DNA of 64,000 nt from Eledone cirrhosa (taxonomy: Eukaryota): the NCBI GenBank assembly GCA_964016885.1, contig OZ024740.1, positions 204,228,001-204,292,000 on the forward strand, given 5' to 3'. The notes beneath the pieces were generated by a model. It was given only the letters and a program-made list of their open reading frames with translations, was not told where the DNA came from and made no database searches. Of this stretch, positions 45,734-45,890 are shown piece after piece. The first letter of the stretch is position 1; every line of letters starts with the position of its first letter. The position numbers and the translations under genes were made by a program.

Positions 45734-45890
45734 AAACAGCCTCTTTTGTAAGCCATGTCAGTAGAATGAGCCCCTCAGTTCCGTTTGCATGCCAACACAA
45801 GAGCAAGAATGAAGGGTTCATTCTACTGACATGGGTTATAAAAGAGGCTGTTTGCATAATTGCAAACGAATCGAATATTATTATTATTAT
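45734..45890 (+). mobile_element. Truncated fold-back copy of the 43407 family
   Basis: 45776-45890 matches 43712-43825; 45734-45777 is an inverted copy of its internal part. Confidence 0.8.

Follow-up and report, generated by a model that had tools for sequence, protein, structure and literature searches.

The 64,000-nt stretch analysed here, referred to as the window, comes from an animal and contains microsatellites, LINE remnants and an SRCR exon (45164-45301). It holds two copies of one repeat family. Copy 1 (43400-43850, + strand) is a partial tandem of 1.18 units with a period of 380 nt and a GC content of 38% (0.379), bordered by (CA)n on one side and (TA)n on the other. Copy 2 (45734-45886, ~150 bases) is a cut-down, mirror-armed copy of this abundant, hammerhead-bearing repeat and the sole other member of the copy 1 family returned by a self-comparison of the window. 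The left flank of copy 2 (45595-45733) is a (TA)n/(TG)n microsatellite, and its right flank (45887-45920) is a (TAT)n/(TA)n tract that adjoins a further hammerhead-bearing element, element C. Both copies thus sit between (CA/TG)n and (TA)n, and because such flanks are simple repeats, no target-site duplication is readable for either, including at the right flank of copy 2. Elsewhere in the window we observed a LINE remnant (195-2894), nearly intact LINE-type reverse transcriptase frames (29731-33155; RVT_1, E 2.6e-23), minisatellites of 34-nt units (37268-37981) and 17-nt units (5287-5913), and a ~190-nt SINE-like repeat present in many copies, some of them in tandem (39985-41775, 62183-62564 and others).

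Copy 1 carries a predicted type I hammerhead (43660-43723, + strand), which we recognise by its pattern: a core at 43676, GAAA at 43696-43699 and a GUC ending at C43709, after which the predicted cut falls. Positions preceded by a plus sign are counted from this predicted cut. Stem I has 7+7 bp with a 2-nt bulge, whereas the 3-bp stem III is near-palindromic and able to dimerise, with a predicted homodimer energy of -8.8 kcal/mol. The 4-bp stem II is atypical, being flanked by A43683 and A43695 instead of the G-C that is usual in hammerheads (according to PMC4209133). In predicted folds of copy 1, the active hammerhead reaches -14.0 kcal/mol and a pairing between core and stem III, the stabler of the two, -20.5 kcal/mol. 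Rfam matched nothing in the window, and a set of 20 weak matches included no hammerhead; no variant falls in the hammerhead core among 40 of the 533 variant rows listed from the public-run data.

The repeat unit is non-coding, with a longest stop-free stretch of 82 codons, and lacks the RT-GIY-YIG ORF that marks an autonomous Penelope-like element (PLE). No autonomous partner of the family was found in the window, whose GIY-YIG-bearing elements match it at noise level only. The 5' end of copy 1 corresponds to +70 of an upstream unit, and the copy was therefore made through an intact hammerhead; arrays of at least two consecutive hammerhead-bearing units are absent from the 64-kb window, copy 1 having one hammerhead in its 1.18 units. 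Internal 33-nt repeats (43544-43653, + strand) fold into a long hairpin, and in most family copies ~54 other letters replace 43653-43661 of copy 1. Downstream of the predicted cut, a small hairpin (43742-43761, + strand) holds positions 43749 and 43753 facing each other in its stem, as G-C in copy 1 and as A-T in ~72% of family depth. Scans of a sequence collection with family motifs gave 0 matches; 12 further matches in that collection, 19-29 nt long and without family flanks, were dismissed as chance.

An earlier reading of the sequence alone had proposed that copy 2 begins at the ribozyme cut of copy 1, and the alignment of the two copies bears out the position it gave. The match begins at 45776, equivalent to 43712 (+3), with mismatches at 45775 and 45774. 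Upstream lies the inverted arm (45734-45777, - strand), which is the reverse complement of 43746-43791 in copy 1 and covers +37 to +82 past the predicted cut; its first 26 nt are identical to copy 1. The direct arm (45776-45886, + strand) covers +3 to about +115. The arms meet head to head, 5' to 5', at a 2-nt CA overlap (45776-45777), also as proposed, and because this CA fits both arms, the true start of the direct arm lies at +3 to +5, that is 2-4 bases beyond C43709. Past the inverted arm, the direct arm extends as a one-sided 3' tail (45854-45886, + strand) of 22 nt of unique sequence plus at most 11 nt inseparable from the (TAT)n flank; the excess is thus 22-33 nt, its upper bound blurred by (TAT)n and 45886 being the furthest possible end. 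The inverted arm is real, as the sequence-only reading stated, but reproduces the direct arm imperfectly: 4 of 44 positions differ between 45734-45777 and 45810-45853. We rejected a MITE with terminal inverted repeats as a description of copy 2, the arms being one-sided truncations of a longer unit.

For usable lengths of 90-425 nt, a single breakpoint falls within +1 to +5 by chance in 1.2-5.6% of cases, and at least one of the three family breakpoints in the window does so in 3.5-16%. Among the matches of seven hammerhead-centred queries to the window, copy 2 is the only one that begins within +1 to +5. The start is suggestive, not compelling, as a departure from chance. The CA overlap is not diagnostic either, because 16.5% of 20,000 random head-to-head junctions in this element show an overlap of at least 2 nt.

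We compared four of eight public runs with one copy 1 unit (43466-43850). The family is abundant, with 8451 contigs in X1 and 7640 in X2, two runs of one sample; it also occurs in X4, from another organism (2730 contigs), and 44,396 reads of X6 match the copy 1 unit. In the bin that holds the cut (43700-43712), depth, which for contigs is not the same as copy number, lies 6.7% (X1) and 6.8% (X2) under that of 43713-43725, and for X6 reads with the first mate on the + strand it is 4.7% below the value at 43722. In the adjoining upstream bins the losses are 11-14% (X1, X2) and 6.8% (X6), probably because most copies have the ~54 other letters at 43653-43661. Just downstream of the cut the depth is flat, with losses of 0.1% and 1.6% in X1/X2, and the fall begins at the cut bin. 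At 43710-43714 there are no loose ends among 24 of the 1342, no joints among 15 of the 263 and no between-letter rows among 12 of the 58. The truncation-point check suggested by the earlier reading, carried out here by depth, thus gives neither a step at the cut nor, among those rows, an end beside it: copies that start at the cut do not make up the main class of the family, and a minor class of up to ~7% is possible and compatible with the depth.

A PstI site overlaps the predicted cut and in restriction-based libraries would mimic a peak. X6 molecules start at 43724/43727 and end at 43796/43799, and we rejected these peaks as a ribozyme signal: their positions coincide with CATG and AATT, which points to restriction sites of a RAD library as the likely source. 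Depth drops ~100-fold upstream of 43505 (43466-43505), either with most copies beginning near there or with a divergent linker in copy 1. At 43778, 3612 X6 reads exit the element into unrelated AT-rich sequence (agreement 0.38); the copies behind these exits may have their 3' ends near +70 to +82, as the copy 2 inverted arm does, and form a class enriched by library size selection.

The alleles of the two arms bear on whether copy 2 came from one RNA or two. Positions 43749 and 43753 are polymorphic across the family, with A at 71.7% and T at 72.2% of X1 depth. The direct arm of copy 2 carries this majority pair at the equivalent positions 45813 and 45817, whereas the inverted arm carries the minority alleles, G43749 and C43753. 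The sequence-only reading had the reverse transcriptase switch onto its own downstream sequence; with different alleles in the two arms, fold-back on one template is disfavoured. From a single template, both sites would have to mutate to the alternative allele, with a probability of roughly 0.001-0.007, while two templates would be expected to disagree in roughly 37% of cases, which gives a rough likelihood ratio of 50-460 against one template. Linkage of the two sites is taken from their equal frequencies and base pairing in the stem, not from single reads, and the ratio could be blunted if quasi-palindrome correction or gene conversion altered the two sites together. On this evidence, the arms of copy 2 probably derive from two RNA templates.

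The window holds three clear hammerhead-bearing relatives, elements A, B and C, with the same layout of inverted arm plus tail; their tails are ~80-89 nt, and none ends at its own cut. Element A (24759-27897, - strand) is a 5'-truncated PLE with hammerhead cuts at 24891 and 27854 and a 370-codon frame (25920-27032) that has a Cys-rich linker and a GIY-YIG-like domain at its end; its inverted arm lacks ~490 nt present in its direct arm. Element B (51606-52028), of the element A family (86-88%), is a near-perfect palindrome that turns round ~121-125 nt upstream of its cut, with arms identical at 166 of 167 positions and a tail of ~86 nt. Element C (45915-48378), adjoining the right flank of copy 2, has hammerheads at 46026 (-) and 48188 (+), arms identical at 366 of 376 positions and an AT-rich 1.6-kb spacer that holds no long ORF. 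All six arms of these three elements, like copy 1, pass through an intact hammerhead. Across the other inverted pairs of the window, the identity between arms is 91-99.6%, and near-perfect palindromes are found several times among them; this fits self-priming or fold-back for those pairs, and fold-back may well act there.

Further patterns of this kind were seen. Three more hammerhead patterns (49617 +, 50231 -, 50625 +) cluster in the interval 49560-51560, where direct and inverted repeats are nested. The motif at 50625 is situated upstream of a GIY-YIG-like frame (50698-51306); a decayed copy is present near 51530-51560. Pfam returned no family for either of the two GIY-YIG-like ORFs of the window, and for one of them Atlas returned GIY-YIG clusters at 0.95-0.96, which we take as a lead only. 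Palindromic stubs without a clear hammerhead lie beside (TA)n at 8651-9247, 12029-12115, 34705-34830, 52185-52291 and 54297-54518, the last with a degenerate hammerhead core at 54420. A 41-nt spacer at 8929-8969 resembles 8626-8650 and 34944-34968.

The layout of copy 2 is that of endonuclease-bearing PLE insertions. These are described as having an inverted, 5'-truncated arm, a one-sided tail of 30-40 bp and a bias towards microsatellites (PMC8557442), or a 31-bp tail and microhomology at 5' junctions, self-priming having been proposed for the PLE inverted repeats (PMC3846280). A PLE protein has been reported to cut and extend both strands, with two internal starts defining the tail (PMC11167929). 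Copies 1 and 2 share with the insertions of these three sources the head-to-head inverted arm, a one-sided tail of ~30 nt, the microhomology junction, the partial tandem (copy 1), microsatellite targets and a type I hammerhead, predicted here, with a palindromic stem III; they differ in lacking an ORF, and copy 2 further in starting 2-4 nt past the cut and in the allele discordance of its arms. Since inverted arm and tail were already described for PLEs, a ribozyme cut is not needed to explain the layout of copy 2. The PLE protein that cuts and extends both strands inserted uncleaved RNA, hammerhead cleavage being dispensable in vitro, and RNA-seq reads with a start or an end at the hammerhead cut were absent (PMC11167929).

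The 380-nt non-coding unit, its GC content of 38%, its predicted type I hammerhead and its abundance resemble the animal non-LTR retrozymes, for which mobilisation by PLEs has been proposed (PMC7229834; preprint 10.64898/2026.07.22.740005). Unlike the retrozymes, the family shows only 1.18 units and one hammerhead in the window, and its stem II closure is atypical. We conclude that this is a new, non-autonomous, hammerhead-bearing family of PLE type, retrozyme-like, with an ordinary, already known insertion architecture; the retro-origin and hammerhead affiliation given to it by the earlier reading are supported. Genomic copies that begin at a ribozyme cut, the principle behind that reading, have precedents: R2 RNA, with an HDV-like ribozyme, is cut at the element's exact 5' junction (PMC3774820), and twister cut sites adjoin target-site duplications in Perere-3 (PMC8501958). 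There such starts are the rule for full-length copies, whereas here one copy starts 2-4 nt off the cut and most family depth crosses it. In a search that covered literature outside supplements and most subscription journals, we found neither a pile-up of PLE or retrozyme copies at a hammerhead cut nor arms from two templates described.

Our explanation starts from the two arms, their overlap, the tail, the allele differences and the abundance of the family, all of them observed, and would apply to copy 2, by analogy, the mechanism of PMC11167929. A trans-acting Penelope-like enzyme, with reverse transcriptase and GIY-YIG endonuclease, would cut both strands within the microsatellite. One cDNA would then be primed from each end, at RNA start sites ~30 nt apart (+115 and +82), and the tail on one side would result from these two sites. 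Each cDNA would probably have a different family RNA as its template; they would stop early, at +3 to +5 and at +37 to +39, and become linked head to head through the 2-nt overlap. As for the stop beside the predicted cut, ordinary truncation, or stalling at the three-way junction of the hammerhead, would be its most likely cause, not a run-off at a cleaved end. We give roughly even chances to this origin of copy 2, in which a trans-acting PLE enzyme inserts an abundant, non-coding hammerhead repeat with 5' truncation of both arms. Copy 2 probably represents a Penelope-type insertion of the ordinary kind rather than proof of ribozyme cutting in the animal.

The sequence-only reading went further and took the template to be self-cleaved, and hence the ribozyme to be active in vivo. 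This claim has one junction behind it, the start at +3 to +5, and family depth shows no step at the cut; origin of copy 2 from a cleaved RNA strikes us as possible but doubtful. In one form of it, the insertion would still use two templates, the direct-arm RNA would be self-cleaved, the reverse transcriptase would run off at the 5'-OH and 2-4 nt would be lost in microhomology joining. A start so close to the cut has a chance of 1-6% per breakpoint, depth in X1/X2 begins to fall at the cut bin, R2 (PMC3774820) and Perere-3 (PMC8501958) offer ribozyme-cut precedents, and animal retrozymes are reported to yield self-cleaved monomers in vivo (PMC7229834). However, the single junction is not at +1, depth shows no step at the cut and the 24 loose ends covered include none there; the -14.0 kcal/mol hammerhead fold loses to the -20.5 kcal/mol fold, stem II has its A/A flank and Rfam gave no hammerhead; and the PLE protein used mainly uncleaved RNA in vitro (as reported in PMC11167929). 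We regard this version as unlikely.

Both arms could instead stem from one uncleaved template, randomly truncated, whose cDNA folded back; mutation, quasi-palindrome correction or gene conversion would then have produced the arm differences afterwards. Such an origin would agree with the near-identity of most inverted pairs in the window (277/278, 166/167, 52/53, 604/609), and the opposed positions 43749 and 43753 could change together in the hairpin; it is nevertheless improbable, both changes having to land on the exact family alleles (roughly 0.001-0.007 without correction). Still less probable is the full model of the earlier reading, in which the reverse transcriptase reaches a self-cleaved RNA end and the cDNA folds back via CA to copy its own downstream sequence. 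A fold-back 34 nt inward agrees with the geometry of the junction, self-priming has been proposed for PLE inverted repeats (PMC3846280) and near-perfect palindromes are present in the window, but the model also requires the unproven cleaved template, the arms differ at 4 of 44 positions, two of which are alternative alleles of the family, and fold-back alone leaves unexplained an inverted arm that ends one tail-length short. That the inversion arose through later rearrangement of the DNA, or through misassembly between the microsatellites on both flanks, is very hard to credit, even with a read comparison that covered copy 1 only, since an assembly fold-back would give identical arms and the tail offset fits the PLE rule and recurs in elements A, B and C.

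We see a small chance that two things hold jointly, namely that the direct arm is a run-off from a hammerhead-cleaved RNA and that a second RNA, belonging to a different subfamily, gave rise to the inverted arm. If so, copy 2 would be a genomic footprint of in vivo cleavage and of two-ended priming on two RNAs, and a minor but sharp class of starts at +1 to +5 would be expected genome-wide. The function of the PLE hammerhead has been called unclear (PMC8557442), and inverted PLE ends have been attributed both to self-priming (PMC3846280) and to priming on both strands (PMC11167929); copy 2 alone settles neither this question nor the role of the hammerhead. The family is abundant and polymorphic, so that with the assembly both the position of its 5' ends relative to the cut and the agreement of alleles between arms are testable.
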